64,000 nt of DNA from Thermodesulfobacteriota bacterium (GTDB lineage Bacteria; Desulfobacterota; Binatia; Bin18): positions 4,288,001-4,352,000 of the forward strand of contig OZ219926.1 in assembly GCA_964291405.2 (NCBI GenBank). Reading direction: 5' to 3'. Each line of letters starts with the position of its first letter. Position 1 is the first letter of the stretch. This document shows positions 3,141 through 58,098 of this stretch, one piece after another. Under the pieces are notes generated by a model. That model ran no database searches. It had not been told where the DNA came from and saw nothing but the letters and a program-made list of their open reading frames with translations. The position numbers were made by a program, and so were the translations under genes.

Positions 3141-3293
3141 AGTGGACGGCCATTATTCCCGCCGGACTAGCGGGAATCAAGGGACTACGGGGCACCTGTT
3201 CGCCGCCCGTGCCCCCTGAAAAAACATAAAAAAGTGCATTTTGTCGCAGAAGATACGGAAGATGCCCAGGCTCGAACCTTCTTGATTTATTCA

Positions 3294-3331
3294 AACATTC
3301 TTATATAAGATAGTTATTATATAAGAATGTT
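3294..3331. promoter_or_regulatory. Perfect 15-bp inverted repeat, probable operator of the downstream ArsR-family regulator
   Basis: AACATTCTTATATAA-N8-TTATATAAGAATGTT in AT-rich DNA ~85 bp upstream of the ArsR gene. Confidence 0.6.
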
Positions 3332-3416
3332 GGGGGGGACCAAGTCTTGAAAGCGATGTCCCCCATTTTTCTCAGGCTTCCCCGAAGAAGTGTAGGGAGA
3401 AAGCAATGAGGCCATA

Positions 3417-4094: not shown

Positions 4095-4114
4095 GCAGAA
4101 AGAGAATAGTGCAG

Positions 4115-4753: not shown

Positions 4754-4776
4754 CGCTCTGGGGAAGGAGATTTTCA

Positions 4777-34837: not shown

Positions 34838-36085
34838 TTAGCCGGCGCGCCTTTGGCTGCGCCCCCGGCGAGCCGGATGAGGTTGCCCGCTCCGGGGCCG
34901 TCTGCCGGGGCGCTTGAGCTGCTTGGGCTGCTCGTTGACATCGGGCGCGAAGCCCTCGACCTGCCGACGGGGTATGGGTGAGCCGATCATGCGTTCGGTC
35001 GCACGTACCCAGCCGGAATCGTCAGCCGTCACAAAAGTACATGCCTCTCCACGGCGCTCGGCGCGGCCGGTGCGCCCAAGGCGATGGGTATATGCCTCGG
35101 GTGTGTCCGGTACATCGAAGTTAATCACGTGGGAGACTCCGCTCACGTCAATGCCGCGCGCCACGATGTCTGTTGCCACGAGGATGTTGTGGTGGCGTGA
35201 GCGGAAGCTGCGCATGGCCCGGTCGCGCTGGGACTGGGACAGGTTGCCCTGGAGACCCACGGCCCGGTGTCCGGCCTGACCGAGGCGCTCGGCCAGACGC
35301 CGGGCGCGGTGCTTGGTGCGGGTGAAGACGATGGCCGAGTCGCAGTTGTCTTGGGTGAGGACGTGTTCGAGCAGGGCGTGCTTGCGCTGCTCTGCGACGA
35401 GCACCAGGGCATGTTTGACGGTAGCGGCCGGGGCCATATCGGTTAACTCGACCACGTGCGGAGTCTGCAATAGATCGTCCGCCAGCCCGCGGACTTCTCT
35501 TGGCATAGTGGCTGAGAACAGCAGGTTCTGCCGGCGAGCGGGAAGCGCGCCGAGGATTTTGCGAATGCCGGGCAGGAAGCCCATATCGAACATATGGTCA
35601 GCTTCGTCGAGCACGAGGGTTTCGACCTGGCCGAGGCGGAGTATACCCTGCTGGAGCAGATCAAGTATGCGGCCTGGGCAGCCCACTACGATCTCCGGGC
35701 GCTGACGCAGCGCACTTATCTGGTTGCGCATTGAGACACCGCCGTAGATGGTGGCCATCTTGAGGCGGGTGAACTGAGCCAGTGTCCGAATTTCTTCCGT
35801 AATCTGGCTGGCGAGTTCCCGGGTGGGTGCGAGCACCAAGGCGCGCAGGCCCTTACGGCGTTCTCCGAGGAGCCGGTCGAGCAGGGGGAGGGCGAAGGCC
35901 GCCGTTTTGCCGGTACCGGTCTGGGCTAAGCCGAGTACGTCGTGGCCGTCGAGGCCGGGGGGAATGGTTTTGACCTGGATTGGCCAGGGAGTTTCAAAGC
36001 CGGCGACGTGGATGCCGCGCATGAGGGCTTCGTGAAGCCCGAACCGGTCGAATGTTGCCGGTGCGATTGATACTGAATCAGACAT
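34838..36085 (-). CDS. DEAD/DEAH-box RNA helicase (RhlE-like)
   Basis: AQTGTGKT, PTRELA, DEAD, SAT, ARGID, HRLGRTGRA. Confidence 0.95.
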   Translation of the reverse strand: MSDSVSIAPATFDRFGLHEALMRGIHVAGFETPWPIQVKTIPPGLDGHDVLGLAQTGTGKTAAFALPLLDRLLGERRKGLRALVLAPTRELASQITEEIRTLAQFTRLKMATIYGGVSMRNQISALRQRPEIVVGCPGRILDLLQQGILRLGQVETLVLDEADHMFDMGFLPGIRKILGALPARRQNLLFSATMPREVRGLADDLLQTPHVVELTDMAPAATVKHALVLVAEQRKHALLEHVLTQDNCDSAIVFTRTKHRARRLAERLGQAGHRAVGLQGNLSQSQRDRAMRSFRSRHHNILVATDIVARGIDVSGVSHVINFDVPDTPEAYTHRLGRTGRAERRGEACTFVTADDSGWVRATERMIGSPIPRRQVEGFAPDVNEQPKQLKRPGRRPRSGQPHPARRGRSQRRAG

Positions 36086-36294
36086 AAGTAGATTAATCTC
36101 CGCCGTAGAGGCACGAGTTGCTCCTGTACGGCCGTATTTTCCGACCCAAACAACAGGGAAAGGGAAGAAGGGTTTTTTTAGCGGCGTGCCCTCGGAGGGA
36201 CGGAGAGGGCCTGTTGTTCGCCGCTGTCGAGCGGATGCTCAAATCACAGGAGCTAGGCTACACGGTCTGCGCGATTTGTGCCACCCCACTGGGA

Positions 36295-36942
36295 CTAGCT
36301 CTTGTTTTTGAAGGCTGCGAAATCTCGCTGCATAACCGAATCGACCACGTTGACCGACGGGCGTTCGCCGACCATTTGCAAATACTCACCCAGGCCGGGG
36401 ACATCATTCGTAATGTCCCAGTCGTAGATTTGCGTAGTGTGCAGATTGGTAAAGCGCAACTCGAAATAGGCGGTCAGGTCGGCGAAGGTGAATGTGTCGC
36501 CGGCAATATAGGGCTCGAAGCGGGTGAGTTGCTTGAGCGCCCGCAGCCCGTTTTCCAGCAATGGCCGGGCTGCGTCGTACGCGGCCTGGTCAACCGGCGC
36601 GCCGAAGTACACGGTCGGTACATGGCGCCGGGCCGGTGCGTCGAGATACAGCTCGACAAAGCGGATAATTTCTTTGGCTTTGGCCCTGGCCCAGGGGTCG
36701 CTGGGATACAGCGCCGGTTGCGGCTGGACATCTTCGAGATAGTCAAAGATGACGTTCGTCTCGGTCAGGGTCGTACCATCGACCTCAATATAGGGCACCT
36801 TGCCCATCGGGCTTTTGGCCAGGACTTCAGGGTCTTGGCTCGGCATGATCGAGACTTCCTCAAAGGCGAGTCCTTTTTCGACCAGTGCGGCCTTGGCCGT
36901 GCTGTAATAATTGCTCAGGGTCGTACCGTAGATTTTGATCAT
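36295..36942 (-). CDS. Glutathione S-transferase family protein
   Basis: SNYY, SPMGKVP, ETNVIFDYLE, TFADL. Confidence 0.9.
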   Translation of the reverse strand: MIKIYGTTLSNYYSTAKAALVEKGLAFEEVSIMPSQDPEVLAKSPMGKVPYIEVDGTTLTETNVIFDYLEDVQPQPALYPSDPWARAKAKEIIRFVELYLDAPARRHVPTVYFGAPVDQAAYDAARPLLENGLRALKQLTRFEPYIAGDTFTFADLTAYFELRFTNLHTTQIYDWDITNDVPGLGEYLQMVGERPSVNVVDSVMQRDFAAFKNKS

Positions 36943-37004
36943 AGTGTGTCCTCCTTGCAGTGTGCGTTCATATACTCAGGGCGGGCAGGTCTCCGCTGGT
37001 CAGA

Positions 37005-37136
37005 TCAATAGACAGGGCTCGTAGATGGTCTGTAAGGTCCCAGCGTCTCGCCTTGCGTCCAGTAATCAGGATACTCGTGGAGATAGCCGAGCCACGCTCC
37101 CTCGTCTTCCCAGTAGACAAATTGTGTCTTATGCAT
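37005..37136 (-). pseudogene. HicB-like antitoxin remnant
   Basis: VYWEDEGAWLGYLHEYPDYWTQGETL, then unrelated sequence; no hicA. Confidence 0.65.
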
Positions 37137-37229
37137 GGTCATCCGCTCTTTTTTCGTCTCTCTCACCGTAAATGTCAATGCGTATGAGCGTACACCCCGT
37201 GGCAAAACGGTGCAGCCCTTGTCTCGACG

Positions 37230-37553
37230 TTACTCCCGCATCGCCTCAATAATACGGGTGAGCCTGAGCAGCTCTTCATCACTGGCATCATTGACCAGCC
37301 CGTCCAGCTTTCGGCGGAGTTCGACGGGAGGATATCCTTCCTCCCGTCGATACTGAAACAATTCGGACAGCGGAACCTCCAGACCCGCGGAAAGGCGCTC
37401 AAGCAGAGCGAGTGTCGGATTCGCCTCTCCCCGCTCAATGACGGCCAGGTAGTTGGTGTTGATGTCGATGATTTCTGCCAGCCGTTCCTGCGTATGTCCC
37501 TTTGATCTTCGCAGGCTTTTAATCCGTTTTCCTAACAGCTCTCGGTCCTTCAT
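37230..37553 (-). CDS. XRE-family HTH transcriptional regulator
   Basis: LGKRIKSLR..TQERLAE..YLAVIERGEANPTL. Confidence 0.9.
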   Translation of the reverse strand: MKDRELLGKRIKSLRRSKGHTQERLAEIIDINTNYLAVIERGEANPTLALLERLSAGLEVPLSELFQYRREEGYPPVELRRKLDGLVNDASDEELLRLTRIIEAMRE

Positions 37554-37797
37554 ACCCGCCTCGTGGTGCAAGACCAGTATGGATAGACCTCTATGTTAGG
37601 TGAACGCTCTGATAGGGATAGTTTATTGACAATATATCTCTGTTAGTAATAATATATTGTCCTTCAGATATAATTTACGAGCGAAACTATACCTGTCAGA
37701 TACCACGAAAGAGGACGTAAACATTTGTCGTCGGCGGACAAGCGCGTGAACCTGAAGCAAGAAACAAGGGAGGAAAGGAGGAGTGCGGAATGAAGGA
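37554..37797 (+). repeat. Promoter/leader module R1, copy A
   Basis: Colinear with 42824-43052; TTGACA at 37626, TAATAAT at 37647; ends in AGGAGG RBS and mini-ORF MKE*. Confidence 0.85.
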
Positions 37798-38002
37798 ATA
37801 GCTCGATGCTGAGATCGGAGGGTGGGGCGTCAAGCGGACTATCCCTTACCGGCCTACTCGCAATGAAGGCTCAGAACTGCGTTGGAAGGAACGATATCAT
37901 AGTCTGAAGGAGGAGGAAAAAGTGATGCATAAAATAGTGTGTAGTCAATACGGACCGGCAACTCGCATGTGCCGGGCGGTGATCGGAGAGAGAAGGTTTT
38001 GT

Positions 38003-38584
38003 ATGGGTCGTGTCGTTGGGGTCGTCAGTATCCTGCTCTGCTTTCTCCTGGCTCCCATCGGAGCACAGGGGCAGGAAGAGGGGCAGGAGACCCCGGCCAC
38101 CGCGTATTTTCTGGATGTTCCATACCAGGGAGGACAATACTCTGGCGTGGGCACAGTGCATGGCTGGATATGTGAGCCGATGGGGGACCTGACGGTTCGT
38201 TTCGACGATGGGGAGCCCATCCCTCTGCTCTATGGTGCCCAGCGGGCGGACGTGATGGAAACCGGACAGTGTGACCACGCAGAAGTCGGTTTCGTCACGA
38301 TCTGGAACTGGGGTGAATTGGGAGAAGGGGAACACACCGCACGGGTGTATGATGGTGACATGTTACTCGTAGAGCATACGTTCATGGTCGCCACGTTTGG
38401 CGTGCCCTTCCTCATGAATGCAGAAGGCAGTTGCACCATTGCCGATTTCCCGTCTACCGGGGAAACCGCGCATTTTACGTGGACCGAGGGAACGCAGCAC
38501 TTAGAGCTGGACCCGTCTGAAGACACGGAGGGCGAGGCCGGCGAGGAAGAGGACGGAAGCGAGGACATGGACGATATGAGCTAA
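38003..38584 (+). CDS. Secreted protein consisting of the shared SGxGxxxGWxC..WNW domain plus an acidic tail
   Basis: Signal peptide MGRVVGVVSILLCFLLAPIGAQG; YSGVGTVHGWICE..LTVRFD..GFVTIWNWG..TQHLEL. Confidence 0.8.
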   Translation: MGRVVGVVSILLCFLLAPIGAQGQEEGQETPATAYFLDVPYQGGQYSGVGTVHGWICEPMGDLTVRFDDGEPIPLLYGAQRADVMETGQCDHAEVGFVTIWNWGELGEGEHTARVYDGDMLLVEHTFMVATFGVPFLMNAEGSCTIADFPSTGETAHFTWTEGTQHLELDPSEDTEGEAGEEEDGSEDMDDMS

Positions 38585-38748
38585 GTGGGTTCCCCGCCCT
38601 TGGTCAGCCTCTTTGGTCGGCCAAAAAGAGGTCGCCCGTTTTTTCCCTCGGGGCGGGTGGCCTCTCTGATTTGCTTACCATGAGGGCTTCATGCACGACT
38701 GGACGAAAGATTGGTCTGCCGGGACCCTCGCCGTGGAAGGAGCAGCGT

Positions 38749-38841
38749 ATGCGAGTGGAATGTCCACACTGTAAAGCCGTGGTGAATTTCAAGCGAGATG
38801 CAAAAGGCCGGTGGGTCGGTACGAAATGGATCCCATTCTGA
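38749..38841 (+). CDS. 30-aa CxxC mini-ORF behind a partial R2 leader (possibly truncated zinc-ribbon gene)
   Basis: MRVECPHCKAVVNFKRDAKGRWVGTKWIPF*, preceded by TCTGCCGGGACCCTCGCCGTGGAAGGAG. Confidence 0.45.
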   Translation: MRVECPHCKAVVNFKRDAKGRWVGTKWIPF

Positions 38842-38879
38842 ACGAACTCCTACCGACTGTTCCGTAGAGGAGGAGATAA

Positions 38880-40703
38880 CTGTACCGTATTATCGCACTT
38901 ATTCTTGCCCTGTTCATGGTCTCTGAGGCTCACGCGGCTATTCTGGAAAATCCCACACATAATGCCCTGTATTCCGGGATTGGCGTCATTTCTGGATGGA
39001 AGTGTGAGACGTCAGGAGAGTTGACCGTCCGTTTTAACGAAGATGATCCGATCCCCCTGGTGTACGGCAGTCAGCGGCTCGATGTCCTCGACGCTGGCGC
39101 GTGTGACAGTGCCGATGTGGGATTTGTAGCCATCTGGAATTGGGCCAAACTCGGTACCGGAACGCACACCGCAGTTGTCTACGACGATGGGGAAGAGTTC
39201 GCTCGCTCTATCTTCGACGTAGCAACGACTGGAGAAGAGTTTCTCCGGGGGGCAAGCGCGCAAGTGTGGATAGACGAATTTCCTGCACCTGGAGAACGAA
39301 CGCGCTTTGTGTGGAATCAAAGTACACAGCATCTTGAACTCGCCGAAGTCACGGAACAGCCTGGCAATGAGGACGATGGCCCGCAATCTGGCAATGGAGC
39401 GACGGAACAGCCTAGCAACGAAGAAGAGGAAGAGGACCCGCAATATGCTCTTCATAGAGCAGCGCAGAATGGAGACGCAGAAGCGGTTCGGACTCTGATT
39501 GCCAATGGAGCGGACGTACATGAGAGGATTAATACGGGGCGTGATACTCCCTTGCATCGGGCTGCGTCAGGGGGAACCGCGGAGGTCATCGAGATTTTAC
39601 TGGAGGCGGGTGCGCTTGTGAACGCGCGGAACACCTTCGGGGACGCGCCATTGCATCATGCCGCAAGGAACGAAAATAGCGGGGAGATCACCCGGGCTCT
39701 TCTTGCGGGGGGCGCGGATTTGTACGCGGGGGATAGCGAAGATCGTACACCGTTACATTGGGCCGCGAGAGAAGGAAGCGTGGATATGGTCTTGATTCTC
39801 TTGGCGGAGGGTATGGACGTGAACACGCAGAGTAAGTGGGGTGACACTCCGCTGCATTATGCAGCAGGTGGCGGAAATGCAGCGGTTATTCGTATATTGC
39901 TTGACGCCGGCGCGGACGTGAATGCACAGGCTTCTCGGGGAGTAACTCCATTACATCGTGGCGCGGGAAGCGGGGATGCAGAGGTTGTTCGCCTCTTGCT
40001 TGACGCAGGCGCGGATGTGAATGCGCGAGGAAGGGGCGATAACACACCGTTGCACCATGCAACACATGGCGGAAACGTAGAAGTTCTCCGGGCGCTACTT
40101 GACGCCGGCGCGGACGTGTATGCGCAAAATGATGACGGTGACACAGCATTTGCACTCGCCGAAAAATATTCAACTCCCGAAGTGGTCGAGTTTCTCCGCA
40201 ATGAAGGAGGGGCCGGGGAAAGGCCCTGCACGCCAGAAACCACAACTGTTCCAGTGATCCTCACAGGCGGGGGGAATCAAGAATCTCAGTGGGCAATAAC
40301 GAACTCCTGTGACGGCACCACGCTGACCATAGATATTACGGTGTTTGGTCTGATCTTCCATCCTCGTTTCTCAAGCTTCCCACTCGATGCAGCAGATTTG
40401 ATGATCGAACAACACGGGCGTTACTACACGTCCCTGTCAACAACCGTATGGAGTCGTCTGTTAGGGTGGTTCATACAGGATTTCTCATGGACATATGATG
40501 ATGGTGGGGAGAACATAGAAGATTATTTCACGTTATATGGACCTCCTGAAACTGTCGGGACGCCCTACACGGTCACGCTCCGCACGATCGTCACGCTTCC
40601 CATGGACGCCAGCCTCAACTTTCGTGAGCCGTTCAAAGTTTTCTATCGGGATACAATAGACACACTTGACGACCTGGAGAACCCGCTGTTTGAGTTTCCG
40701 TAG
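38880..40703 (+). CDS. Secreted ankyrin-repeat protein with the shared N-terminal domain; probable CTG start
   Basis: LENP..YSGIGVISGWKCE..IWNWA..TQHLEL, then ~8 TPLHxAA..G..LLxAGADVN repeats (~39446-40200), then unknown C-terminal domain. Confidence 0.9.
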   Translation: MYRIIALILALFMVSEAHAAILENPTHNALYSGIGVISGWKCETSGELTVRFNEDDPIPLVYGSQRLDVLDAGACDSADVGFVAIWNWAKLGTGTHTAVVYDDGEEFARSIFDVATTGEEFLRGASAQVWIDEFPAPGERTRFVWNQSTQHLELAEVTEQPGNEDDGPQSGNGATEQPSNEEEEEDPQYALHRAAQNGDAEAVRTLIANGADVHERINTGRDTPLHRAASGGTAEVIEILLEAGALVNARNTFGDAPLHHAARNENSGEITRALLAGGADLYAGDSEDRTPLHWAAREGSVDMVLILLAEGMDVNTQSKWGDTPLHYAAGGGNAAVIRILLDAGADVNAQASRGVTPLHRGAGSGDAEVVRLLLDAGADVNARGRGDNTPLHHATHGGNVEVLRALLDAGADVYAQNDDGDTAFALAEKYSTPEVVEFLRNEGGAGERPCTPETTTVPVILTGGGNQESQWAITNSCDGTTLTIDITVFGLIFHPRFSSFPLDAADLMIEQHGRYYTSLSTTVWSRLLGWFIQDFSWTYDDGGENIEDYFTLYGPPETVGTPYTVTLRTIVTLPMDASLNFREPFKVFYRDTIDTLDDLENPLFEFP

Positions 40704-40875
40704 CATGGGGAATTCCAACAGGCCGTGAGAAAAACCGGCGGGTTGCATGGACGGATGTCAGTCAGCGCGACCCCCCGGCTCACCGGGGTCCACAGAGATG
40801 CCATCATGCGGCTGAACCCGTGCATCGGCCGTTGAGACTCCGTCAGCCAGCCCGCAGCTCAAGACCAACACCATT

Positions 40876-40934
40876 TTATGTGTCCTCGAACAGCTCCTGG
40901 ATGTGCGCCTCGGGCAGGGGCTGGGTCACTTTGG
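40876..40934 (-). repeat. Orphan copy of the 3' end of the sodium:solute symporter gene
   Basis: Encodes KVTQPLPEAHIQELFEDT*, versus KVTQPLPEAHVQVLFEDV* in gene 52209-53786. Confidence 0.85.
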
Positions 40935-41131
40935 GGACAGGGATAGTTTCGAGCACGATTAAGTCCTTCCCTAATGGCACGGTCAGCCGCCGGGGCAGCG
41001 GCAGTAGGTCAGTGCTGGCGAAACAGATAGCGGCACTCAGAAAGGAACAAGAGATGACCGAGAAAATCCGACAGATCATCGAAGAGGCGGTAAGGTGTTT
41101 TGAAGAGGAGCAGGAAGACCCCCGCATCCTT

Positions 41132-41212
41132 CAAGCTCAGCTCTGTGGCCATACCCTGCGATTAACAGGGATGGGGAACAGGGCATATAAGTCCCCTCAT
41201 TAGGACAGTACC
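41132..41212 (+). repeat. 81-bp repeat R3, copy A, ending in IS-like end ATTAGGACAGTACC
   Basis: Direct repeat of 42004-42084 with 3 mismatches. Confidence 0.9.
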
Positions 41213-41236
41213 ACCTTGCGTTGCGAGTCAACCTTT

Positions 41237-41254
41237 ATTATATTTCAATATAAT
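41237..41254. promoter_or_regulatory. pemIK-type operator palindrome
   Basis: ATTATAT-TTCA-ATATAAT just upstream of the antitoxin gene. Confidence 0.6.
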
Positions 41255-41267
41255 GTGAGAGGTGCTT

Positions 41268-41525
41268 ATGCATACCACGACTCTGCGCAAGGTTGGCGGT
41301 TCCGTCATGCTCGCCGTGCCCCCGGCCCTTCTGAATCTCCTGCAGCTCGGGGTCGGTGCCAGAGTGGATATCCGGATTGAGGACGGCCGCTTGGTTGTTA
41401 CGCCCAGGACACGTCCACGGTACTCGCTTGATGAACTGCTGGCACAATGCGACGAGACCGCCCCCGTGGCGGCCGGGGATCGCGCCTGGATTGACGCGAA
41501 GCCGGTCGGCAACGAACTGTTGTAA
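41268..41525 (+). CDS. pemI: PemI/MazE-family antitoxin
   Basis: MHTTTLRKVGGSVMLAVPPALL..RPRYSLDELLAQCD..PVGNELL. Confidence 0.92.
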   Translation: MHTTTLRKVGGSVMLAVPPALLNLLQLGVGARVDIRIEDGRLVVTPRTRPRYSLDELLAQCDETAPVAAGDRAWIDAKPVGNELL

Positions 41526-41857
41526 TGCAGCGGGGCGACATCTGGCTCGTCAGCCTCGATCCCACGGCCGGCCATGAACAACAAGGGACCCGGCCGGTCG
41601 TGATCGTGTCCCCGGCAGCGTTCAACGAATTGACCGGGACGCCAGTTGTCCTGCCCATCACCACCGGCGGGAGCTTCGCGCGCCGGCGTGGTTTCGCGGT
41701 TTCCCTCGAAGACGCGGGCACCCACACGAGGGGCGTGATCCGCTGCGACCAGCCGCGCGTCCTCGACCTCGCTGTCCGGAATGGGAAACGCCTCGAAACC
41801 GTCCCGGAGCCCATCATGGATGAAGTGCTTGCCCGCCTCGCCGCCATCATCACGTAG
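41525..41857 (+). CDS. pemK: PemK/MazF-family endoribonuclease toxin
   Basis: RGDIWLVSLDPTAGHEQQGTRPV, PITTGG, IRCDQPRVLD. Confidence 0.93.
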   Translation: MQRGDIWLVSLDPTAGHEQQGTRPVVIVSPAAFNELTGTPVVLPITTGGSFARRRGFAVSLEDAGTHTRGVIRCDQPRVLDLAVRNGKRLETVPEPIMDEVLARLAAIIT

Positions 41858-42003
41858 GCAGCTTCGCCGGTGCCCGAGCTTCGTGCGAGACGGACACGAG
41901 GATGCATGCGCGTGCAGTCGGGCCGTGGCAAGAAGAGCGGAGCCGGCCGCGGGCCACGGTGGAATGCCGTGGCGTCGGCGGGAAACTGATGGAGGAGCGC
42001 AAC

Positions 42004-42084
42004 CAAGCTCAGCTCTGTGGCCATACCCTGCGATTAACAGGGATGGGGAACAGGACATATAAGTCCCCAAATTAGGACAGTACC
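42004..42084 (+). repeat. 81-bp repeat R3, copy B
   Basis: Ends CAAATTAGGACAGTACC, the reverse complement of the R2 start with one mismatch. Confidence 0.9.
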
Positions 42085-42174
42085 CTTATTTGTTAAACTT
42101 GGCCGTCTCCGGAAGTTCGCGGCGGAGACTGGCCGGCCGGACGCTGAGAACATGGTATTCTGTCAAGACACGGC

Positions 42175-42474
42175 TCAGGCGCGTTTCGCCTGGGGAGTCA
42201 CGCTGAGCCGCAGGCCCAACTGCCCGAGCACGCCGCTCAAGGTGGAGAGCCGGGGATTGCCGTCTGCCGAGAAGGACTGGTACAAGGTCTCGCGGCGTAA
42301 CCCCGCCCCTTGGGCGACCGTGGTAAAACCCTTGGATTTGACAACCTTGCGCAGCGCCACCAGCAAGAGCTTGTCATCTCCTTCTTCCAGAACGGCGTCC
42401 AAGTACGCGGCGATCTCCTCGGGACTGCCGAGGTGGGCGGCGACATCAAATGCTCTCGTCGTTGCCCCTGCCAT
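42175..42474 (-). CDS. Addiction module antidote protein (HigA-like, XRE)
   Basis: FDVAAHL.SPEEIAAYLDAVLE..GLRRETLYQSFS..GNPRLSTL; own RBS GGAGG. Confidence 0.88.
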   Translation of the reverse strand: MAGATTRAFDVAAHLGSPEEIAAYLDAVLEEGDDKLLLVALRKVVKSKGFTTVAQGAGLRRETLYQSFSADGNPRLSTLSGVLGQLGLRLSVTPQAKRA

Positions 42475-42794
42475 TATGTCTCCTCCTGAGTCCAGGAGCC
42501 TTGCCAAAGTTCGCGCGCGTTCAATGTCTCGCGTTTGGGTTCGCTTTGTCCCGCCCCACAGCAGGACTACCGTTCGACCACTGATACGGTAATATATCCG
42601 GTAACCTGGACCGGCGTCGATACGATACTCAAATAATGCCGGTACTCCCTTAATGGACTTTGCCCCGCCGAAGTTCCCGTCCGACATCTTGCTGACCGCA
42701 GCGAGGATGCGCGCCTCGCACCCAGATCACGCAGTCCGTTCAGCCACGCTTCGAAGGGAACGCTACCGTCCGCCAGTTCGAGCGCGCGGGTCAA
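42475..42794 (-). pseudogene. Addiction module killer (HigB/RelE-like), frameshifted near 42715 and in frame with the antidote without a stop
   Basis: DGSVPFEAWLNGLRD in one frame; GNFG..KSI..FEYRIDAGPGYRIYY..LLWGGTKRTQ.RDI in another. Confidence 0.75.
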
Positions 42795-42823
42795 TTGGGC
42801 AGAATTGAGGCGGAAGAGGGCAA

Positions 42824-43052
42824 ACCCGCCTCGTGGTTCAAGACCAGTATGGATAGACCTCTATGTTAGATGAACGGTCTGGCTGAGATAGTTCATTGAC
42901 AAATTATCTTTGTTAGTAATAATACACCGTCTGAAAGATATAATTTATAAGTAAGACTATATCTGTCAGACATTGTAAAAGATGACATAAACATTCGTCA
43001 TCAGCGGAGGAACGCGTGGGCCCGAAGCAAGAAACACGGGAGGATAAGGAGG
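42824..43052 (+). repeat. Promoter/leader module R1, copy B
   Basis: Colinear with 37554-37781, including TTGACA/TAATAAT and the AGGAGG RBS. Confidence 0.85.
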
Positions 43053-43059
43053 CGTCACC

Positions 43060-43395
43060 ATGACAAAAGAGAATGATTCAGGGTGGAACGGCTTCGTGCT
43101 TGAAAAAGACGGAAAAAGCAACTGCCTGCTTAAAAAAGACGAAGAGACATACTGCATCGTGCTCAAAGCAGAAGGGGATGATGAGGTGAAAGAGGGACAC
43201 TTTAGAGCAGACTTCCAGGGCAAATACAGGATCAATGGCAGGACATGTCAACCAGTTAATATCTCAGGGTCTCCCGACGCTCCCGGACCCTGGAGGGGGT
43301 CGTATTGTGGTGGTTTGGAAACACACGTTCGCGGCCACGAAAAGGATGGGTGGGTCATATCTCCGCTGGAAAGTTTTGAATGTCTCTGCACCTAA
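43060..43395 (+). CDS. Hypothetical protein behind R1 copy B
   Basis: 111-aa ORF with strong RBS TAAGGAGG. Confidence 0.6.
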   Translation: MTKENDSGWNGFVLEKDGKSNCLLKKDEETYCIVLKAEGDDEVKEGHFRADFQGKYRINGRTCQPVNISGSPDAPGPWRGSYCGGLETHVRGHEKDGWVISPLESFECLCT

Positions 43396-43458
43396 CGATT
43401 GAAGGTGATGTCCGTGTCCGAGTCTCTGCCGGGACCGCGTTCGCATAGGAGGTAGGCC

Positions 43459-43893
43459 ATGGAGGGAGTTGAGATATTAGGCGCACTGCTCGTGTGGGTG
43501 CTCTGTGGGATTGCCGGGGCTATGATTGCCTCGCAGAAAGGCCGAAGTGCTGGAGGCTGGGCCGTGCTGTGTTTTCTGCTTGGGCCGCTCGGTGTCATCC
43601 TCGCGTTGGTCGCCAGTCGAGATGAGGCAGGACTGGAAGCGCAGGCGCTAGAGAGTGGGGACAGTCGGAAGTGTCCGCAGTGTGCCGAGATCATTAAATC
43701 GGAGGCCACGAAATGCCGCTATTGTGGGAGCGAACTGGAACCCCTACCAGAACCACAGGAGGGAGGCCCCTGTTTCGTGTGTGGTTTTATAATACGGGAC
43801 CATAAGGTGCCCATCTGCCCCAACTGTGGGCGGAAAGACCCGCTGGCAGGACCTGCTGGGAGCAGAGAAGGCGTGTCATGGAAGGATGGGTAA
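43459..43893 (+). CDS. Membrane protein with double zinc ribbons
   Basis: Two TM helices (KGRS..GW..GPLG), then CPQC..CRYC and CFVC..CPNC. Confidence 0.8.
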   Translation: MEGVEILGALLVWVLCGIAGAMIASQKGRSAGGWAVLCFLLGPLGVILALVASRDEAGLEAQALESGDSRKCPQCAEIIKSEATKCRYCGSELEPLPEPQEGGPCFVCGFIIRDHKVPICPNCGRKDPLAGPAGSREGVSWKDG

Positions 43894-43965
43894 TGATGAA
43901 GTCCATGGTCCTGTTGACAGTGTTTCTGGATATCCGCCAACTCTTGCGGGAGCTCAAAGGGAATG

Positions 43966-44104
43966 GGGCACTGTCCTAATTTGACACTGCACTGCCTGAT
44001 TTCGCGGGCTACCACCTATTTGAAGGGGAACGCGCTGAGCACCATCTCTGTGTCGTGTGCTCAACGACCCGACAACTCTGTCGGGACCCTCGCAGTGGAA
44101 GGAG
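43966..44104 (+). repeat. IS-like-ended structured leader R2, copy A
   Basis: Starts GGCACTGTCCTAATTTG; hairpins TGAGCAC/GTGCTCA and CCCGACA/TGTCGGG; ends GGAAGGAG. Confidence 0.88.
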
Positions 44105-44112
44105 GAGATGCG

Positions 44113-44340
44113 ATGTCTTGGATTACCGGTGTTTTGGATGAACTCAGTGATGCTCTTCGTTCGTCGATAAGTCGGCGACTTAACGCATACTTCTATGAGG
44201 ATGAGGATAAACACGAATATGGTCCAGAGGATGGGGGTGATCCAAGCCCAGACCCATGGCCCCCTGACCCCGACTTCAGGGGTCCTGATATCCCCCTGCA
44301 CTTTAATGCTCCTCCTGGCGAGTATGATGAGGAGGAGTAG
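44113..44340 (+). CDS. Small acidic, Pro-rich hypothetical protein
   Basis: MSWITGVLDELSDAL..EDEDKHEYGPEDGGDPSPDPWPPDPD..EYDEEE*; follows the R2 RBS. Confidence 0.6.
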   Translation: MSWITGVLDELSDALRSSISRRLNAYFYEDEDKHEYGPEDGGDPSPDPWPPDPDFRGPDIPLHFNAPPGEYDEEE

Positions 44341-44343
44341 CGT

Positions 44344-44781
44344 ATGGCATTATTTGAAGAAGAGGAAATGACTTGGCGTGAATTTGAAAAGCTCTGCGAG
44401 CAACTCGTAACAGATACTTTCCACGGCGACACCTGGAAAGTGAAAATACAGCCAGTGCGGACTTATGCCGATGGCCAGACGAAAAGAATGGACATCGAAA
44501 TTTCCGAGAGGAGGCAGGGAGGAAGACATTACGTAGTTGATTGTAAACATTTCCCGAAAGCCGCGCTAAACGAGGAAGAAATTAGGACGACACTCGACTA
44601 CAAAAGAAGGTCCCGTGCATCCAGAGCTTTTATCCTTGTCAGTAGTGCTTCCAATTGTCCGCAATCATTTTTAGATTCTGCCAGACGCCAAGATGTGAGC
44701 GTTGAGATAGTGAGTACAAAAAAGTACCCAGGACTGCTCAAATGGATGAGAAACGGTTTCTTTGATCTCGATTTGTCATGA
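44344..44781 (+). CDS. Stand-alone Mrr-like PD-(D/E)XK restriction endonuclease domain
   Basis: WREFEKLCEQL, RMDI, VVDCK, AFILVS. Confidence 0.75.
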   Translation: MALFEEEEMTWREFEKLCEQLVTDTFHGDTWKVKIQPVRTYADGQTKRMDIEISERRQGGRHYVVDCKHFPKAALNEEEIRTTLDYKRRSRASRAFILVSSASNCPQSFLDSARRQDVSVEIVSTKKYPGLLKWMRNGFFDLDLS

Positions 44782-44793
44782 AGGAGACCACAC

Positions 44794-44932
44794 GGGCACT
44801 GTCCTAATTTGACGCTGCACTGCCTGATTTCGTGGGCTACTACCTTATTTGAAGGGGAACGAGCTGAGCACCATCTCTGTGTCGTGTACTCAACGGCCGA
44901 TAACTCTGCCGGGACTACTGTAGTGGAAGGAG
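44794..44932 (+). repeat. IS-like-ended structured leader R2, copy B
   Basis: Near-identical to 43966-44104. Confidence 0.88.
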
Positions 44933-44938
44933 AATGTC

Positions 44939-45238
44939 ATGGAGCAGAAGGGCATTATCGATGCGAGTTGTATTGATACAAGGGAGATGGAAAAGCGAAA
45001 TCGCGGACCAATTCGGGAGGTATGGGAAACAAAAATCGTCCCAATGAGAGCCCTTGCCTTCGACTCTGGCGCGGATTGGACATCGCGAGCGATTGCGATT
45101 GGGGCACTGATTTATCTCATTTCTCCGATTGACGCTGTTCCTGATGTCTTACCAGGAGGGCTGTTGGACGACCTCGCCGTCATCCTTGCCGCTGCCGCGC
45201 AGATTGTTGACGTGCTGCGGAAGTATGTCAATGACTGA
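44939..45238 (+). CDS. DUF1232/YkvA-family membrane protein
   Basis: GALIYLISPIDAVPDVLPGGLLDDLAV. Confidence 0.85.
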   Translation: MEQKGIIDASCIDTREMEKRNRGPIREVWETKIVPMRALAFDSGADWTSRAIAIGALIYLISPIDAVPDVLPGGLLDDLAVILAAAAQIVDVLRKYVND

Positions 45239-45640
45239 CCGGCTCGTCCTTCGCTCTACGGTGTTGTGACTAGAGCCTACACCGCAGAAGAAGCTGGACA
45301 GTGGATTGCCGGGTAGTGTCTCACTTTGAAATTTGTCCCCCTCGCCGTCGGCTGCGTCGCCCCCTTTCCCCTCCCGGTTTCGCCTGCTGAGCTTCTGCGG
45401 GGCTCGTATCTTTTTTTTGTTCCCCCCCATTTGGGGGGGGATAAGGGCCGCAGCAGTGTGTTAGGAGTCCTTATTGATGGAGGCGACACCGGACAAACAG
45501 CGCGAGTTTTTTACTGCTGCACGGGCCAGTCGGGGGAGTATGCAATCGCTGATCTGGGTGTTCCTGTTCATCCTGGCCTTTGTCGTCCTAGTGATGCTCC
45601 GCTGAGTCTGTTTCGTTTGCGTGTAATTCGAGGCAGGAAG

Positions 45641-45705
45641 GGCGGATAAACGCGTAGGCCCGAAGCAAGAAACACGGGAGGATAAGGAGGAGGCAGAATG
45701 AAGGA
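45641..45705 (+). repeat. Partial R1 module, copy C (RBS end)
   Basis: CGCGTAGGCCCGAAGCAAGAAACACGGGAGGATAAGGAGG..AATGAAGGA; mini-ORF MKEFV*. Confidence 0.75.
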
Positions 45706-45824
45706 GTTTGTATGAGAAGAGTTACGTGGCGAATAGGTGGGGGCTCACAATGCGTTCATGCCGTGATGTTGACACAGCCCGGCAACTCTCATGTGCCGTA
45801 TTGTGGTTTGGAAGGGGGGAGAGT

Positions 45825-46799
45825 ATGCCTGGAGACCACACGAACGAATGGACAAAAACGATTTACACCTGTCGGTATCATTGGAAATGGATACTGTTTT
45901 GGGCCATGTTCATTCTCTTTGGGTTTCTCTCTCTTCGTGTATGGGCTGACACGTTGGAAATTCCCGGCCACGGCAGCATTCAATCTGGCATTGGCGTGAT
46001 TTCGGGCTGGAAGTGCCGAGCCAATGGACGCATTACCGTCCGTTTTGATGGGGGCCGGTCCATTCCGCTGGTCTATGGCAGTGAGCGAACTGATACCCGT
46101 GGGGTATGCGAGGATGCAAACAATGGGTTTGTGGCTATTTGGAATTGGGGGGCACTGGATGACGGAACATATACGGTCGTGGCCTACGATAATGACCGAG
46201 AGTTCGACCGTGCCACCTTTACCGTGGTGACGACTGGCGTGGAATTTCTCAGAGATGTGACGGGTTCCGGCACGGCGACCCTCAGCAACGGACAACAAGC
46301 CACCTTAGAGTGGTCACAGGCGACACAAAGTTTCGTGGCAACGGATTTCACCGACCCCCGAGGGACACCCGTCACGCCAGAACCAGTAGAGACGCCTGAA
46401 GCACGCCAGTTACGTGGACTCATTGGCACCTGGGCGTTCACCTTGACAGTCCTGGACCCACCGAATCAGAGTCCCATTCGACGGTCCTATACCGTCAGTA
46501 GGGTTGAACAGACCGATGCCGGTGCTGGTGCTATTGGCCGTGACCCAGCGGATCAATCCACCTTCCTCGTTATTGTCTCGGACCCGCCCGCGGTCTTAGA
46601 GGGGCAAAGTTATCCGTTTTTTCTGGTTGATGTGGATCGCCTGCAAAGTGGGTATATTTGTAGCAGCTATTTTCTCCGGCAGTCCGGCAATCGTCTGACT
46701 GGGTATTTCGGTCTTGCAGAAGGCCGAGGTCCCGATTTGAGTCAATGTGATGCGGATACGCTTTTTGCTGTTGGGACAGTGACAGCAACACGGAGATAA
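45825..46799 (+). CDS. Secreted/membrane-anchored protein with the shared N-terminal domain and a beta-rich C-terminal domain
   Basis: LEIPG..SGIGVISGWKC..ITVRFD..GFVAIWNWG..WSQATQSF; Pro/Thr linker; LIGTWAFT. Confidence 0.8.
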   Translation: MPGDHTNEWTKTIYTCRYHWKWILFWAMFILFGFLSLRVWADTLEIPGHGSIQSGIGVISGWKCRANGRITVRFDGGRSIPLVYGSERTDTRGVCEDANNGFVAIWNWGALDDGTYTVVAYDNDREFDRATFTVVTTGVEFLRDVTGSGTATLSNGQQATLEWSQATQSFVATDFTDPRGTPVTPEPVETPEARQLRGLIGTWAFTLTVLDPPNQSPIRRSYTVSRVEQTDAGAGAIGRDPADQSTFLVIVSDPPAVLEGQSYPFFLVDVDRLQSGYICSSYFLRQSGNRLTGYFGLAEGRGPDLSQCDADTLFAVGTVTATRR

Positions 46800-47207
46800 C
46801 GACAGGTAGCCCCCACGCTTGACATGCTGAGAGGCCCTATAGTAACGAAGCTTTCTCCTCTATAGGGTCAGCACTCAAGAATCGCTTTGTTCATAACCTG
46901 ACAGGAACAAAAGGCTGAGACCCACCTCTGGCAAAGGATATCGCCAAACTCCTTGACAGGTTGGGAGACATGCTCACCAAAGATCCATTTATCAGGCAGA
47001 TGGCGAATGAACGATTGAAGGCTACTATTCCCTCTTTCGTAGATCGCTACCAGGGCAGCTGGCGCTAACGCCTGGGCTACTTGTCAGCGTAACACTCCGT
47101 GCAGGCATGCCGGATCAGGACCAAGGAGAGACGCGCGGCAAGCGAGCCCGGCAGGATGCCCCCGAGCATGAGCGACCTCCATATCTCACCAAGAGAGGAG
47201 TGCAGGA

Positions 47208-47801
47208 ATGACAAAGACTGCCATGATAATTGGATACGTGTGTATCGTGGTGTGCTCCGCCACCCCTGTCGGGGCGACCACGGTGCTGGAGAAGGATTTC
47301 CCAGCCCTAGTGCAGGAAGCCGAGACGATAGCAGTCGGCACCGTCATCAGTATCGAAGTGGTCCAGGAGGGCGAGACCCCCTTCACCCTGATCACATTCT
47401 CCGATCTCGACATTCTCAAAGGCGACTCAGATCAAGAAGCACTCACCGTTTCTGTGATGGGCGGTCCGAGTGCAGGCGGACTCAGGCTCCATATCGCCGG
47501 TGTCCCGGAGTTCACCCTGGGCGACCGTATGGTCGTGTTTATCGTGGGGAACGAGACCCAAGCGGTGCCGTTTGTGGGAATGTGGCAAGGCGTGTATCGC
47601 GTGGTGCAGGACCCCGAGCAGGGCACCGAGCGCATGGCCGACCATGCAGGCCGACCACTGACGGCGTTACCTCAACGCCAGTCTGCTGACGGACTTGTCC
47701 ATGATGACGCCCCCTCTACTGTGCAAACACTCCAGGCTCCCGCACTCTCGCTGGATATCTTCCTTGAGGCGATTGCGGAGAAGGTGCAGGATGAACAGTA
47801 A
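47208..47801 (+). CDS. Secreted protein coupled to the downstream metalloprotease
   Basis: Signal peptide; LVQEAETIAVGTV, G.PEFTLGDRMVVF, GMWQGVYRV; overlaps next gene. Confidence 0.75.
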   Translation: MTKTAMIIGYVCIVVCSATPVGATTVLEKDFPALVQEAETIAVGTVISIEVVQEGETPFTLITFSDLDILKGDSDQEALTVSVMGGPSAGGLRLHIAGVPEFTLGDRMVVFIVGNETQAVPFVGMWQGVYRVVQDPEQGTERMADHAGRPLTALPQRQSADGLVHDDAPSTVQTLQAPALSLDIFLEAIAEKVQDEQ

Positions 47802-49581
47802 ACAACGGAGTATGTGGGCACTCGCGGGCCTCCTAGTGCTAGTCTCCATCAGCCTCAGTTTTGCCTATGTCCGCACCACAACCCCGCAGGGCAACGCCAT
47901 CTTCTGGCCCAAGCCGCAGGCCACGCTCGTCGGGAACCTCGGCTGTCCCCAGGTCCAGCTGGCGGCGTGGGGACGGTGTTGGGATGATGTCGCCCGCCAT
48001 GCCGCGTCGGCCTGGAATGGGGCGGGATCACGGTTTCGCTTTCAGACGGTGCGGTCCACCGCGCGGGAGCAACTGTCCTGTACCACCAACCAGATTGATT
48101 TCCGTAACGTGGTGGTGTGGTCTCCCTCGCATTGTGGCAGGGCGTGGGGAGACACTGTCGCGATCACGCAAACGTGGTTCCTTGAGTCGGGTGAGATAGC
48201 GGATACGGATGTGCTGGTGAATGAGCAGCTGCTCTGGAATGCGTATCAAGGCCCTGCACGCTTCAACGGCGGTCGCATAGTCTATGATCTGTACCGCGTG
48301 CTGCTGCACGAGTTCGGCCATGTGCTGGGGCTCGCTCACCCGGATGAACACGGCCAGAACGTGCGCGCCATCATGCACAGTAGCAATATGAACGGGACGA
48401 TTGAGCGCTTGCAGCCCGACGATATTGCGGGCATCAAAGCAATCTATGGTGTCGCGGGTGCTGGTCCCGACCCCGATTACTGTGTGAACAATTACTGTGG
48501 GATTGGAGATGGGGATTGCGATCCAGGACAATGTGATGAAGGCGTGTGCGTGAATGATGTCGGTGCACGCTACGGTTTACCCGCCCATTATGATGTCTGT
48601 GAAGCAAGGGGGAGTGGTCAGCCTGATCCCGACTACTGTGTCTATAACGATTGTGGGGCAGGCGAGGGAGACTGCGACCCTGGCCAGTGTGGGGCTGGTC
48701 TCGTCTGTGTCAATGATGTCGGTGCCCGGTATGGGTTGCCCGCGCATTACGATGTCTGTGAAACGCGGAGTGCAGGTCGTCCTGATCCTGACTATTGCGT
48801 GTACAACTACTGTGGGATTGGGGATGGGGATTGCGATCCGGGACAGTGTGACGAAGGGACGTGTGTGAACGATGTCGGGGCAGAATACGGATTGCCCGCG
48901 TACTACGATGTCTGTGAAACGCGGAGTGCAGGTCGTCCTGATCCTGACTATTGCGTGTACAACTACTGTGGGATTGGGGATGGGGATTGCGATCCGGGGC
49001 AATGCGATGAGGGTGTCTGTGTCAATGATGTGGGGGCACAGTATGGCTTGCCAGCCCACTACGATGTGTGTGAAGCACATGACACCACACCACCGGTTAC
49101 CAGTGGTGTCCGCCAATTCGTGGGGACCTGGCGCTTCACCAACAGCCGCACGACGCAAACCTACCGCTTCGGAGAGTGTCCGGCAAATACCGTGCTGAAA
49201 CCATGCGTAGCGGATGTGCCACAAAGAACGTATTTGTGGCCGACGTACCTTTTTGAAGGATTAGGTTCCCTTGGGCATAGCTATTATCTCGCGGACGTTG
49301 AACGTAGCGTGTGCCGGATATGGCTTTTCTATGAACCAGACGGCAATCGTGTGAGCGGTCATTATGGAGAGGCGTATGGGAATTGTCTTTCAAGCTCAGC
49401 CCTTTCCTCGATTACTGAAGATTTAACGTATCAGCGCTATCCCACCACCGGCACCCGTAGCAGTCAATCTGCTACGGGTCTGACGACCACACCAGAAACC
49501 CTTCAACCCCCCGTCACACCAGAAGTACAAGAGGCGCTTGAACAGGCTATTGAGGATTCGCTGTTCTTGCTGATGAAATAG
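47791..49581 (+). CDS. Secreted matrixin (M10-like metzincin) with four Cys-rich repeats
   Basis: HEFGHVLGLAH zinc motif, AIM Met-turn, L.PDDIAGIKAIYG. Confidence 0.88.
   Translation: MNSKQRSMWALAGLLVLVSISLSFAYVRTTTPQGNAIFWPKPQATLVGNLGCPQVQLAAWGRCWDDVARHAASAWNGAGSRFRFQTVRSTAREQLSCTTNQIDFRNVVVWSPSHCGRAWGDTVAITQTWFLESGEIADTDVLVNEQLLWNAYQGPARFNGGRIVYDLYRVLLHEFGHVLGLAHPDEHGQNVRAIMHSSNMNGTIERLQPDDIAGIKAIYGVAGAGPDPDYCVNNYCGIGDGDCDPGQCDEGVCVNDVGARYGLPAHYDVCEARGSGQPDPDYCVYNDCGAGEGDCDPGQCGAGLVCVNDVGARYGLPAHYDVCETRSAGRPDPDYCVYNYCGIGDGDCDPGQCDEGTCVNDVGAEYGLPAYYDVCETRSAGRPDPDYCVYNYCGIGDGDCDPGQCDEGVCVNDVGAQYGLPAHYDVCEAHDTTPPVTSGVRQFVGTWRFTNSRTTQTYRFGECPANTVLKPCVADVPQRTYLWPTYLFEGLGSLGHSYYLADVERSVCRIWLFYEPDGNRVSGHYGEAYGNCLSSSALSSITEDLTYQRYPTTGTRSSQSATGLTTTPETLQPPVTPEVQEALEQAIEDSLFLLMK
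48466..49074 (+). repeat. Four tandem ~156-bp coding repeats (6-Cys module)
   Basis: PDPDYCVxNxCGxGxGDCDPGQCxxGxCVNDVGAxYGLPAxYDVCE x4. Confidence 0.95.
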
Positions 49582-57077: not shown

Positions 57078-58098
57078 TAGAGCGTGTTACACTGTCGTGT
57101 AGCGTCTAGAGGAAGGCGTGGTACGTGGTGAGAGGCAAGGGGGACGTATGCAAGCATATTCGCTAGATCTCCGGGAGCGCGTCGTAGCCGACCGGGTGGC
57201 GGGACTGCGCACGGCCGAGGTGGCCCGCAAGTATCGCGTGAGTCCGGCGTGGGTACGCCGGCTCCTGCAGCGCTACCGGGCGACGGGGAAGGTGGCCCCC
57301 AAGCGACGGACGCAGTATCGCCTGCCCCTCCTCCAGCCGTATCTCCCGCAACTTGCCGCGTTGATTCAGGCGCAGCCCGACGCGACCCTCGCCGAGTTAC
57401 GCGCGGCCTTGGGCGTCTCGGTCAGTCTGCCCACGGTATGGCGAGCCATACGCCACTTAGGCCTGACGGTAAAAAAAAGTCCTACACGCGGCAGAACAAG
57501 ATCGGCCTGATGTCGTGGTGGCACGCCAGCGCTGGCGCGCCCAAGCGGCCTCCCTCGATGGGCACGGCCTCGTCTTCCTGGATGAGACGGCCGTGCGGAC
57601 GAATCTGACCCGGCGGTACGGTCGGAGTCGGCGCGGGACACGCCTCGTCGCCAAAGTCCCTCATGGACACTGGCAAACGACCACCCTCATTGCCGCCCTG
57701 CGCGCGCAGCACCTCACCGCCCCGGCGGTCTTGGATGGGCCGGTTGATGGCCCCTGCTTTGTCGCTTATGTCGAACAGGTCCTCGCGCCCACCTTGCACC
57801 CCGGCGACTGCGTCGTCATGGACAATCTCGCCTGTCATAAAGTCACAGGCGTGCGCCAAGCGATTGAGGCTGTCGGGGCGCGCTTGCTCTATCTGCCCCC
57901 CTACAGCCCCGACTTCAATCCCATTGAGCAAGTCTTTGCCAAACTCAAAGCCCGCCTGCGGGCCGCTCCGCCCCGCACGGTTGCCCGCTTGTGGGCCGCT
58001 ATTGGCCACACCCTCCAGACCTTCTCTCCCGCGGAATGTGCCAACTATATCCGCCACGCTGGCTATCGCCTCGCTACACCACCATGAAAACTGCTCTA
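57078..58098 (+). mobile_element. IS630-family insertion sequence
   Basis: Ends TAGAGCGTGTTACACTGTCGTGTAGCG / CGCTACACCACCATGAAAACTGCTCTA, both in CTAG context. Confidence 0.92.
57148..58087 (+). CDS. IS630 transposase (two ORFs joined by probable -1 frameshift at A8 run 57471-57478)
   Basis: [13 protein letters not shown]; [25 protein letters not shown]. Confidence 0.92.

Follow-up and report, generated by a model that had tools for sequence, protein, structure and literature searches.

What kind of element sets nearly the same short sequence in front of several unrelated small genes? The question is raised by a 64,000-nt stretch of contig OZ219926.1 (positions 4,288,001 to 4,352,000; hereafter the window) in the genome of a Thermodesulfobacteriota bacterium (GenBank assembly GCA_964291405.2). 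In this stretch, an earlier note made from the sequence alone had described a ~140-bp unit repeated at 43966 and 44794 and had interpreted it as part of an integron-like array that captures and expresses genes. We read the locus as a decayed, recombining cluster of cargo cassettes of the IS1595 family of insertion sequences (IS), of the transporter-IS or mobile-insertion-cassette type, and we put the probability of this reading at about three in four. For the comparisons we used a panel of 101 genomes, consisting of the source genome (G000) and 100 relatives.

Repeated units and IS1595-family ends

The two units, A and B (coordinates of features are collected in Table 1), are each 139 nt long, 90% identical and 828 bp apart, and they are the only full-length copies in the whole 4.95-Mb genome; the repeat reported in the earlier note is therefore real. 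Both units start with GGCACTGTCCTAATTTG, and both end in CTG(C/T)CGGGAC..GGAAGGAG a few bases 5' of a start codon, that of an acidic peptide at 44113 behind unit A and that of a DUF1232 protein at 44939 behind unit B. The 3' part of unit A, treated below as a leader tail, contains the hairpin CCCGACA/TGTCGGG and the Shine-Dalgarno sequence GGAAGGAG. Hairpins had been described as perfect in A and weaker in B, and comparison with shuffled sequences agrees, as unit A folds better than its shuffles (z = -2.58) and unit B does not (z = +0.76). The further claim that the 3' part recurs at two other sites stood in part: the last 28 nt of the unit return at 38715-38742 with 93% identity, and the site at 43424-43452 has only CTCTGCCGGGAC and a Shine-Dalgarno sequence in common with the units.

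The pattern CTGYCGGGAC-N8-16-GGAG has four matches genome-wide, all of them at this locus (38716, 43426, 44078 and 44906) and each right before a start codon; in 60 relatives its background is ~0.3 per genome, similar to that of a reversed-pattern control. Based on Pfam, the open reading frames (ORFs) behind the four sites are unrelated, as had been stated: they encode a zinc-ribbon fragment, a zinc-ribbon membrane protein, the acidic peptide (no Pfam family) followed by Mrr_cat, and DUF1232. The first of these, a CxxC ORF of 30 amino acids (aa), is a truncated remnant; its version in relative G002 (L088) is 95 aa long, includes a glycine-rich membrane segment and has a full leader upstream.

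When aligned to the panel, the unit matched eight genomes, and in all except G015 the match covered nucleotides 1-46 only. These short matches are the ends of ~100-bp MITEs (miniature inverted-repeat transposable elements) with perfect 8-bp target duplications (e.g., GAGATGTA, CAATTCGA and GGTCCACG). A scan for GGYACTGTCCTAATTTGAC in one genome per species identified 29 loci in several phyla, including Candidatus Binatia; in seven of them, a right end lies within 151 nt and the 8-bp flanks are identical. A 3152-bp element in relative G011 (L036 2394-5545) has the ends GGTACTGTCCAAATTAG and CAAATTAGGACACTACC, which are alike to the window-type end at 15 of 17 positions, and the 8-bp flanks GGACAGCG and GGGCAGCG; it carries a 327-aa transposase assigned to PF12762 (DDE_Tnp_IS1595; L036 2459-3442, E = 7.2e-42) and three passenger ORFs. 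Judged by likeness to these sequences, the unit's first ~63 nucleotides represent the left end of an element of the IS1595 family, in line with the earlier assignment.

The window also holds right ends. Two 81-nt direct repeats, R81a and R81b, are 96% alike, and both end in the reverse complement of the units' start. Within the window, GGYACTGTCCTAAT has four matches (two on each strand) compared with 0.4 expected, and the terminal inverted repeat GGYACTGTCCTAATTTG is found on the forward strand at 43967 and 44795, with its reverse complement ending at 41212 and 42084/5. The order of the ends is right, right, left, left (41212, 42085, 43966 and 44794); neither left end is followed by a right end further downstream, so none of the units amounts to a complete mobile cassette. 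The earlier note had reported no cognate transposase in the window, and this absence extends to the genome: PF12762 has no match in the window, its matches in G000 lie elsewhere (C3:1895896 and a fragment at 4717218), the single intact IS1595 transposase of the genome (C3:1895896) has different ends (GGGAATTATATAC..), and no transposase with window-type ends was found in either. Elsewhere in G000 we observed a 70-bp mini-element with window-type inverted ends (C3:67360-67429) and solo end-like sites at 86180 and 1079204, the latter adjoining an AAA-ATPase-like gene on the reverse strand.

Complete elements are present in relatives. In G022, a 1960-bp cassette without a transposase (L163 190-2149) has the perfect 8-bp duplication CGGAAGCG on both sides, and its order is a window-type end with three subrepeats, a promoter, a full copy of the leader described in the next section, a gene for a 371-aa lipoprotein, a short second ORF and the right end ..CATGAGGACAGTACC. 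In G051, a 2725-bp element with another IS1595-type end (GGGAACAAYATACTTGA) and 8-bp duplications (ATCACAAA) is found in at least three sequenced copies, and six leader matches have equal scores. This element runs from one end through a promoter, the leader, a gene for a 380-aa secreted protease-like protein with a GIxVISGW domain and a gene for a 311-aa IS1595 transposase on the opposite strand to the other end, and elements in G010 and G004 follow the same plan.

Two of the G051 copies, which lie ~21 kb apart (G051:C8, L157 and L158), are inverted and have each other's 8-bp flanks (TTTGAGAA / TTTCGGTT), indicating inversion by recombination between copies. At L161 (G004:C3) 2208-6467, an IS1595 element with GGGAATTATAGTG..-type ends (~2354-6273) is nested in a ~340-bp MITE, the ends of which (GGTAGTGTCTCAGTTTG, 17/17 inverted) resemble the window type.

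The R1 leader and its cargo

Traced into the relatives, the CTGYCGGGAC motif closes a longer conserved 5' region, and from 28 sequences of this region we built a covariance model, R1, with 151 positions and 24 pairs. In a full leader region, a TTGAC -35 hexamer is followed by ~150 nt, a local hairpin, a ribosome-binding site (RBS) and a start codon; the elements of the ~150-nt leader are GUCGGGUC, CCUGC..GAAUAGAAC, a variable-stem hairpin, GGYGAAUAGGCAGG and ACGGCCCGGCA. Full-length R1 matches were identified in 32 of the 101 genomes, with up to 17 per genome and ~201 in total (150 listed and 51 more), and most of them fall in two genera; example loci are L095 1544-1691 (-), L131 1501-1652 and L157 4676-4824. 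Two full copies are present in G000, both outside the window (C3:4718418-4718570 on the reverse strand and C3:3915257-3915406 on the forward strand).

Among 52 distinct R1 copies, 98.1% of cells pair compared with 92.3% in shuffles (none of 500 shuffles reached the observed value), 13 of the 24 pairs change on both sides, and slid controls pair at no more than 45%; the alignment behind these values was fitted to the model, which favours structure. In an alignment-free test, an outer helix of at least 7 bp was found in 42 of 51 copies as against 22% of cross-pairings. We used this test instead of a fixed-column analysis of the outer helix (alignment A5), in which the helix paired poorly and two subfamilies lay in different registers. 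R1 has an invariant core and five helices that covary, and an alternative hairpin at its 3' side is possible. Based on a rough script, a local hairpin of at least 5 bp that uses the GGCCCGGC segment is possible in 37 of 51 copies, and it would compete with helix 1. Upstream, TTGAC occurs 41-48 nt 5' of the model start in 34 of the 52 copies; it lies within 20-70 nt upstream in 36 of 52, compared with 2 of 52 in a control window.

Searches of Rfam 15 with four full-leader loci gave no match at E ≤1, and for window positions 36000-48000 Rfam returned only a chance microRNA match (E = 0.64). Titles and abstract openings of literature on IS1595 elements with passenger genes or MITEs and on mobile insertion cassettes contained no mention of a leader RNA, and a search for literature combining Binatia and riboswitch found no paper. 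The R1 leader family appears to be undescribed. It shares with the cis-regulatory leaders and riboswitches of Rfam a fixed distance behind a promoter, a position before a RBS and covarying helices; unlike them, it precedes genes that do not belong to one metabolic pathway but encode secreted or membrane proteins and transposon cargo.

R1 is associated with IS1595 elements. In the genomes that were also searched for the PF12762 transposase there are 122 leader matches, and 16 of these lie within 5 kb of a transposase match, a ~20-fold enrichment over the ~0.7 expected; nine of the 16 are convergent with the transposase gene, and seven are directly downstream of it on the same strand. An IS1595-type end occurs within 300 nt upstream in 9 of 52 leader copies and in none of 52 control windows. 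In G046, G002 and G051, as in G022, a window-type end lies 106-130 nt before the leader, and these are four independent loci.

An ORF preceded by a RBS was present behind 28 of the 29 leader loci examined. After seven short or doubtful ORFs had been dropped, 22 were submitted to Pfam; six were assigned to families (DUF1232, FGE-sulfatase, Peptidase_M4, a weak Peptidase_M10, ankyrin repeats and a weak zinc-ribbon), and 16 had none. Judged by eye, many of the downstream ORFs begin with signal-peptide-like segments. Several cargo families also occur in the island around the units, namely GIGVISGW-type proteins with or without ankyrin repeats, an M10 peptidase, the 47208 family, the CxxC protein and DUF1232; a DUF1232 gene of relative G010 carries a full leader.

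The intact leader would most likely regulate expression of the cargo, and its helix GUCGGGUC:GGCCCGGC would compete with the 3' hairpin CCCGGC..GCCGGG. A broader proposal, which we put forward tentatively and with the odds against it, is that R1 represents a new class of transposon-borne structured regulatory RNA, carried with its promoter beside one IS1595 end as a portable expression platform that would place expression of the cargo under one shared signal. The cargo of such a platform would be secreted proteases, ankyrin and GIGVISGW proteins, small membrane proteins and toxin-antitoxin-like genes, and clusters like the one in the window would arise as cassettes inserted repeatedly and recombined from leader to leader. 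IS elements with passenger genes and cassettes without a transposase are known already; the new component would be a conserved, covarying 150-nt leader RNA that travels with the cargo. If the proposal is correct, R1 cassettes would be a transposon-based functional counterpart of the integron, transposons would deliver a regulated expression module together with genes, and the spread and reshuffling of secreted-protein families in this uncultured lineage would be explained. With its ~200 matches and lack of an Rfam match, R1 is a candidate for structure probing, for a search for its ligand or protein partner and for submission to Rfam. For annotation, the locus indicates that where unrelated small genes are preceded by short leader repeats, these repeats can be cassette fossils.

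Origin of the window units and rival explanations

Aligned with the G022 and G046 elements, unit A, unit B and the unit of G015 match in two stretches, the first being the end with its subrepeats and the second extending from GAATAGGCAGG to the RBS; the three subterminal repeats of the units align with those of both elements. Between the two stretches, ~160 alignment columns are absent from the units, corresponding to the promoter plus the leader's first ~90 nt, and a consensus scan identified no promoter-like site inside unit A or unit B. According to this alignment, the unit's 3' part represents the final ~75 nt of the ~150-nt R1 leader, an assignment that rests on the alignment with G015 (unit E = 1.6e-6) and G046. 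Within the window, no full-length R1 match was found at E ≤0.001, and with filters off the best match had E = 0.083.

In intact relatives, the terminal inverted repeat has three subrepeats at ~21-nt spacing, which are presumed transposase binding sites, and the parts follow in the order inverted repeat, sigma-70-type promoter, ~150-nt R1, Shine-Dalgarno sequence, cargo, in some cases a DDE transposase of IS1595 type, and the second inverted repeat. Their insertion duplicates 8 bp of the target, and any copy that lacks a transposase would depend on one acting in trans. In our reading of the window, the left end was fused by an internal deletion straight to the last ~75 nt of the leader, giving a hybrid that is present twice as units A and B, and two right ends survive upstream of the units. 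Because neither kind of end has a correctly oriented partner and no transposase with such ends is encoded in the genome, the window cassettes are probably immobile relics. The genes from ORF111 through DUF1232 are probably one transcript, running from a predicted promoter at 42896 to a predicted terminator at 45388, and the leader tails would then act only as intercistronic segments of hairpin plus RBS. The many repeated leaders and ends probably serve as recombination substrates, by which gene modules are shuffled between strains.

Differences between strains were examined in G015 and in metagenome runs X1, X2, X3 and X5. In G015, whose flanks are ~89% identical, the order of Mrr, unit B and DUF1232 is kept, and the unit lacks the terminal ~27 nt; the position of unit B before the same gene fits vertical descent. 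The region 40754-44277 is missing from G015, and a different leader precedes its acidic-peptide gene. One X3 contig joins 43052, in the RBS of a second repeated leader (D1; Table 1), to 44340 at the start of Mrr with two other letters between, and another X3 contig has 197 other letters in place of 41132-41965 (R81a and MazEF), between 41131 and 41966. In runs X1, X2 and X3, contigs link 43044 to 40950. Three further joints (38742-44795, 44104-45182 and 42924-38500) were not used, as they trace to the repeated D1 leader or to sides of 28-30 nt. The contig joints and the differences in G015 suggest that modules have been gained, lost and re-joined at leader/RBS boundaries, and the strain differences fit recombination between repeated leaders, either homologous or through microhomology.

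In a passage of PMC3129680 (citing Siguier, Gagnevin & Chandler 2009), IS1595-family ISs with passenger genes are termed transporter IS. The elements of G011, G051, G010 and G004 share with these a PF12762 DDE transposase, inverted repeats starting with GG, an 8-bp duplication and passenger genes unrelated to transposition; they differ in that the cargo lies behind a conserved promoter and a ~150-nt structured leader beside one end, and the window differs further in having truncated ends only and no transposase. Mobile insertion cassettes (MICs), such as MIC231 of Bacillus cereus, are mentioned in the same source (PMC3129680, citing De Palmenaer et al. 2004). Their defining arrangement, inverted IS ends that enclose passenger genes in the absence of a transposase and are presumably moved in trans, is present in the G022 element and not in the window, where the copies are half-cassettes unable to move as they stand; in addition, the family is IS1595 and not IS231/IS4, and a leader RNA is part of the cassette.

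The units can also be compared with regulatory MITEs. The Correia elements of Neisseria are MITEs that bring regulatory signals to neighbouring genes. Like these, the elements described here include short non-autonomous IS derivatives beside genes, in a multi-copy family with target duplications; the window differs in that the end is fused to a leader tail within an operon-like row of genes and that no promoter is predicted in the unit.

Several points weigh against a cluster of decayed cassettes. For 106 of the 122 leader matches there is no transposase match within 5 kb, and 43 of the 52 leader copies have no recognised upstream end; the leader could be a host element picked up by ISs. No matching 8-bp flanks were found for the four window ends (the best pair, ACCACACG and ACCTTGCG, agrees by eye at 5/8, which is compatible with chance), so past transposition at this site is deduced and not demonstrated. 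For the interior of the 81-nt right-end repeats, a search of the 100 other genomes gave no relative, and the repeat is found only in G000. Support from the hidden Markov model (HMM) for leader homology is weak for unit A taken alone (match at 44043-44087 to positions 104-148, E = 0.033 in 33 kb), and unit B was not reported on its own by the local HMM search. Promoter and terminator assignments are consensus matches only. Metagenome contigs were placed at 88% likeness (with sides of 42 and 182 nt), and their joints may stem from other strains or species.

The rival that survives best takes up the first of these points. It holds that R1 is a cis-regulatory RNA of the chromosome that belongs to a Binatia regulon of secreted and membrane proteins, that MITEs and ISs of the IS1595 family tend to insert just 5' of the promoters of R1 and now and then take up a leader-gene module, and that the units arose from such an insertion followed by deletion. 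Beyond the many leaders lacking a nearby transposase or end, this explanation draws on the downstream genes, which fall in few families (GIGVISGW-type secreted proteins, M10 and M4 peptidases and small membrane proteins) as those of a regulon might, and on locus L005, at which a complete MITE with its own target duplication lies just upstream of the -35 hexamer and is an insertion beside a promoter, not part of a cassette. We nevertheless consider a host regulon unlikely. In G022, leader and cargo lie inside the inverted repeats and the 8-bp duplication lies outside; in G051, the leader is internal to a multi-copy element; and both the nearly fixed spacing between end and leader at four independent loci and the enrichment of leaders near transposases argue for carriage by the elements.

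Much less credit is due to the idea that the 139-nt unit is a functional module of end, promoter and RBS that still acquires and expresses genes without an integrase. Integron arrays do resemble the locus: both are rows of short, unrelated, promoter-less genes with a recurring boundary before each, here the common 3' motif in front of four unrelated ORFs, and their content varies by strain, as it does here among G000, G015 and the metagenome contigs. In the window, however, the promoter has been deleted from the units, the ends stand in an order that leaves them unpaired and are without duplications, the genome has no transposase for them, and a Pfam scan of 44 ORFs at 23.7-64 kb identified no integrase or recombinase family, IntI-type or other. 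Where an integron would have attC sites, the recurring boundaries were identified as IS ends and leader tails, and no common Pc-type promoter lies beside an attI site. Moreover, the full unit is found only at the locus and, before the same gene, in G015, and its core (GCACCATCTCTGTGTCGYGT) had no match in the metagenome scan. The arrangement of end, promoter and RBS proposed in the earlier note does exist in relatives, as in G022, where end, promoter, leader and RBS precede the cargo, and at the level of the family an IS end and leader before varied cargo, often without a transposase, has held up. Nothing indicates site-specific capture, and the integron serves as an analogy only.

A simple local duplication of an intergenic spacer, with a start that resembles an IS end by chance, would account for two full units so close together and nowhere else in the genome. 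It is hardly credible given that the 17-nt start is found again, in inverted orientation, where two other repeats of the locus end, that this start matches the ends of MITEs and ISs that have 8-bp duplications in relatives, and that the three subterminal repeats have aligned counterparts in the elements of G022 and G046.

Gene content of the variable island

The units lie in a variable island at ~37-52 kb, which is bounded by a DEAD-box helicase/GST on one side and a solute symporter on the other. The island holds two kinds of hybrid leader, in which a tail is joined either to an IS end or to D1, and two minimal tails (Table 1).

Table 1. Window coordinates of the units, ends, leader segments and cargo genes, with their proposed assignment
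Feature	Position	Strand	Assignment
Unit A	43966-44104	+	Left end of IS1595 type (~43966-44028; three subterminal repeats) joined to the final ~75 nt of the R1 leader
Unit B	44794-44932	+	Built like unit A; hairpins weaker
R81a, right-end relic	41132-41212	+	Ends ..ATTAGGACAGTACC, inverted partner of the units' start
R81b, right-end relic	42004-42085	+	Ends CAAATTAGGACAGTACC
Leader 3' relic	38715-38742	+	CTGCCGGGAC..GGAAGGAG, 5' of the truncated CxxC gene (38749-38841)
Minimal leader relic	43424-43452	+	Directly before the zinc-ribbon membrane protein gene (43459-43893)
R1 leader 3' half	45725-45796	+	HMM positions 77-147, E = 2.3e-10; behind the D1 copy at 45642-45701, before a secreted GIGVISGW-type protein
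R1 leader relic	37937-37973	+	HMM positions 112-148, E = 0.0023; downstream of the D1 copy at 37551-37793
D1, second repeated promoter/leader	42821-43063	+	Near-consensus sigma-70-like site at 42896-42923
MazE/MazF-type (MazE/PemK) toxin-antitoxin pair	41262-41857	+	Cargo between R81a and R81b
Acidic peptide and Mrr-like nuclease	44113-44340 and 44344-44781	+	Cargo behind unit A
DUF1232 membrane protein	44939-45238	+	Cargo behind unit B

Besides its three copies in the window, D1 has one copy elsewhere in the genome (G000:C3:1969812-1970016). Two of the copies are divergent from an XRE or HigA-type gene, the downstream genes differ, and three copies have the 3' half of the R1 leader behind them. 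The sigma-70-like site in the copy at 42821 is the sole near-consensus one of the region, and terminator-like sites occur at 38618 and 45388-45415.

Between R81b and unit A lie a frameshifted HigB-like/HigA pair on the reverse strand, D1 and two small ORFs. In this pair (42175-42794), the HigB-like killer gene is 5' of a HI1420-type antidote and appears frameshifted, with its halves in overlapping ORFs, one at 42567-42794 and the other forming the N-terminus of 42175-42687.

A family of secreted proteins with a common N-terminal domain (..SGIGVISGWKC..VRFDGG..PL.YG..R.D...GFV.IWNW..) is represented in the window at 37922-38584, 38916-40703 and 45708-46799 and also at L075, L105, L110 and L157. 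The domain has no match in Pfam; depending on the copy, it is fused to ankyrin repeats, FGE-sulfatase or a M10-like protease.

Farther along the window, an ORF at 57118-57510 encodes a 130-aa helix-turn-helix fragment of IS630/Tc3 type without a DDE domain, which looks like a further IS relic. Parts of the stretch were found, at a small share, in runs X3, X7, X9 and others labelled as sponge or marine metagenome, and the island encodes ankyrin-repeat proteins.

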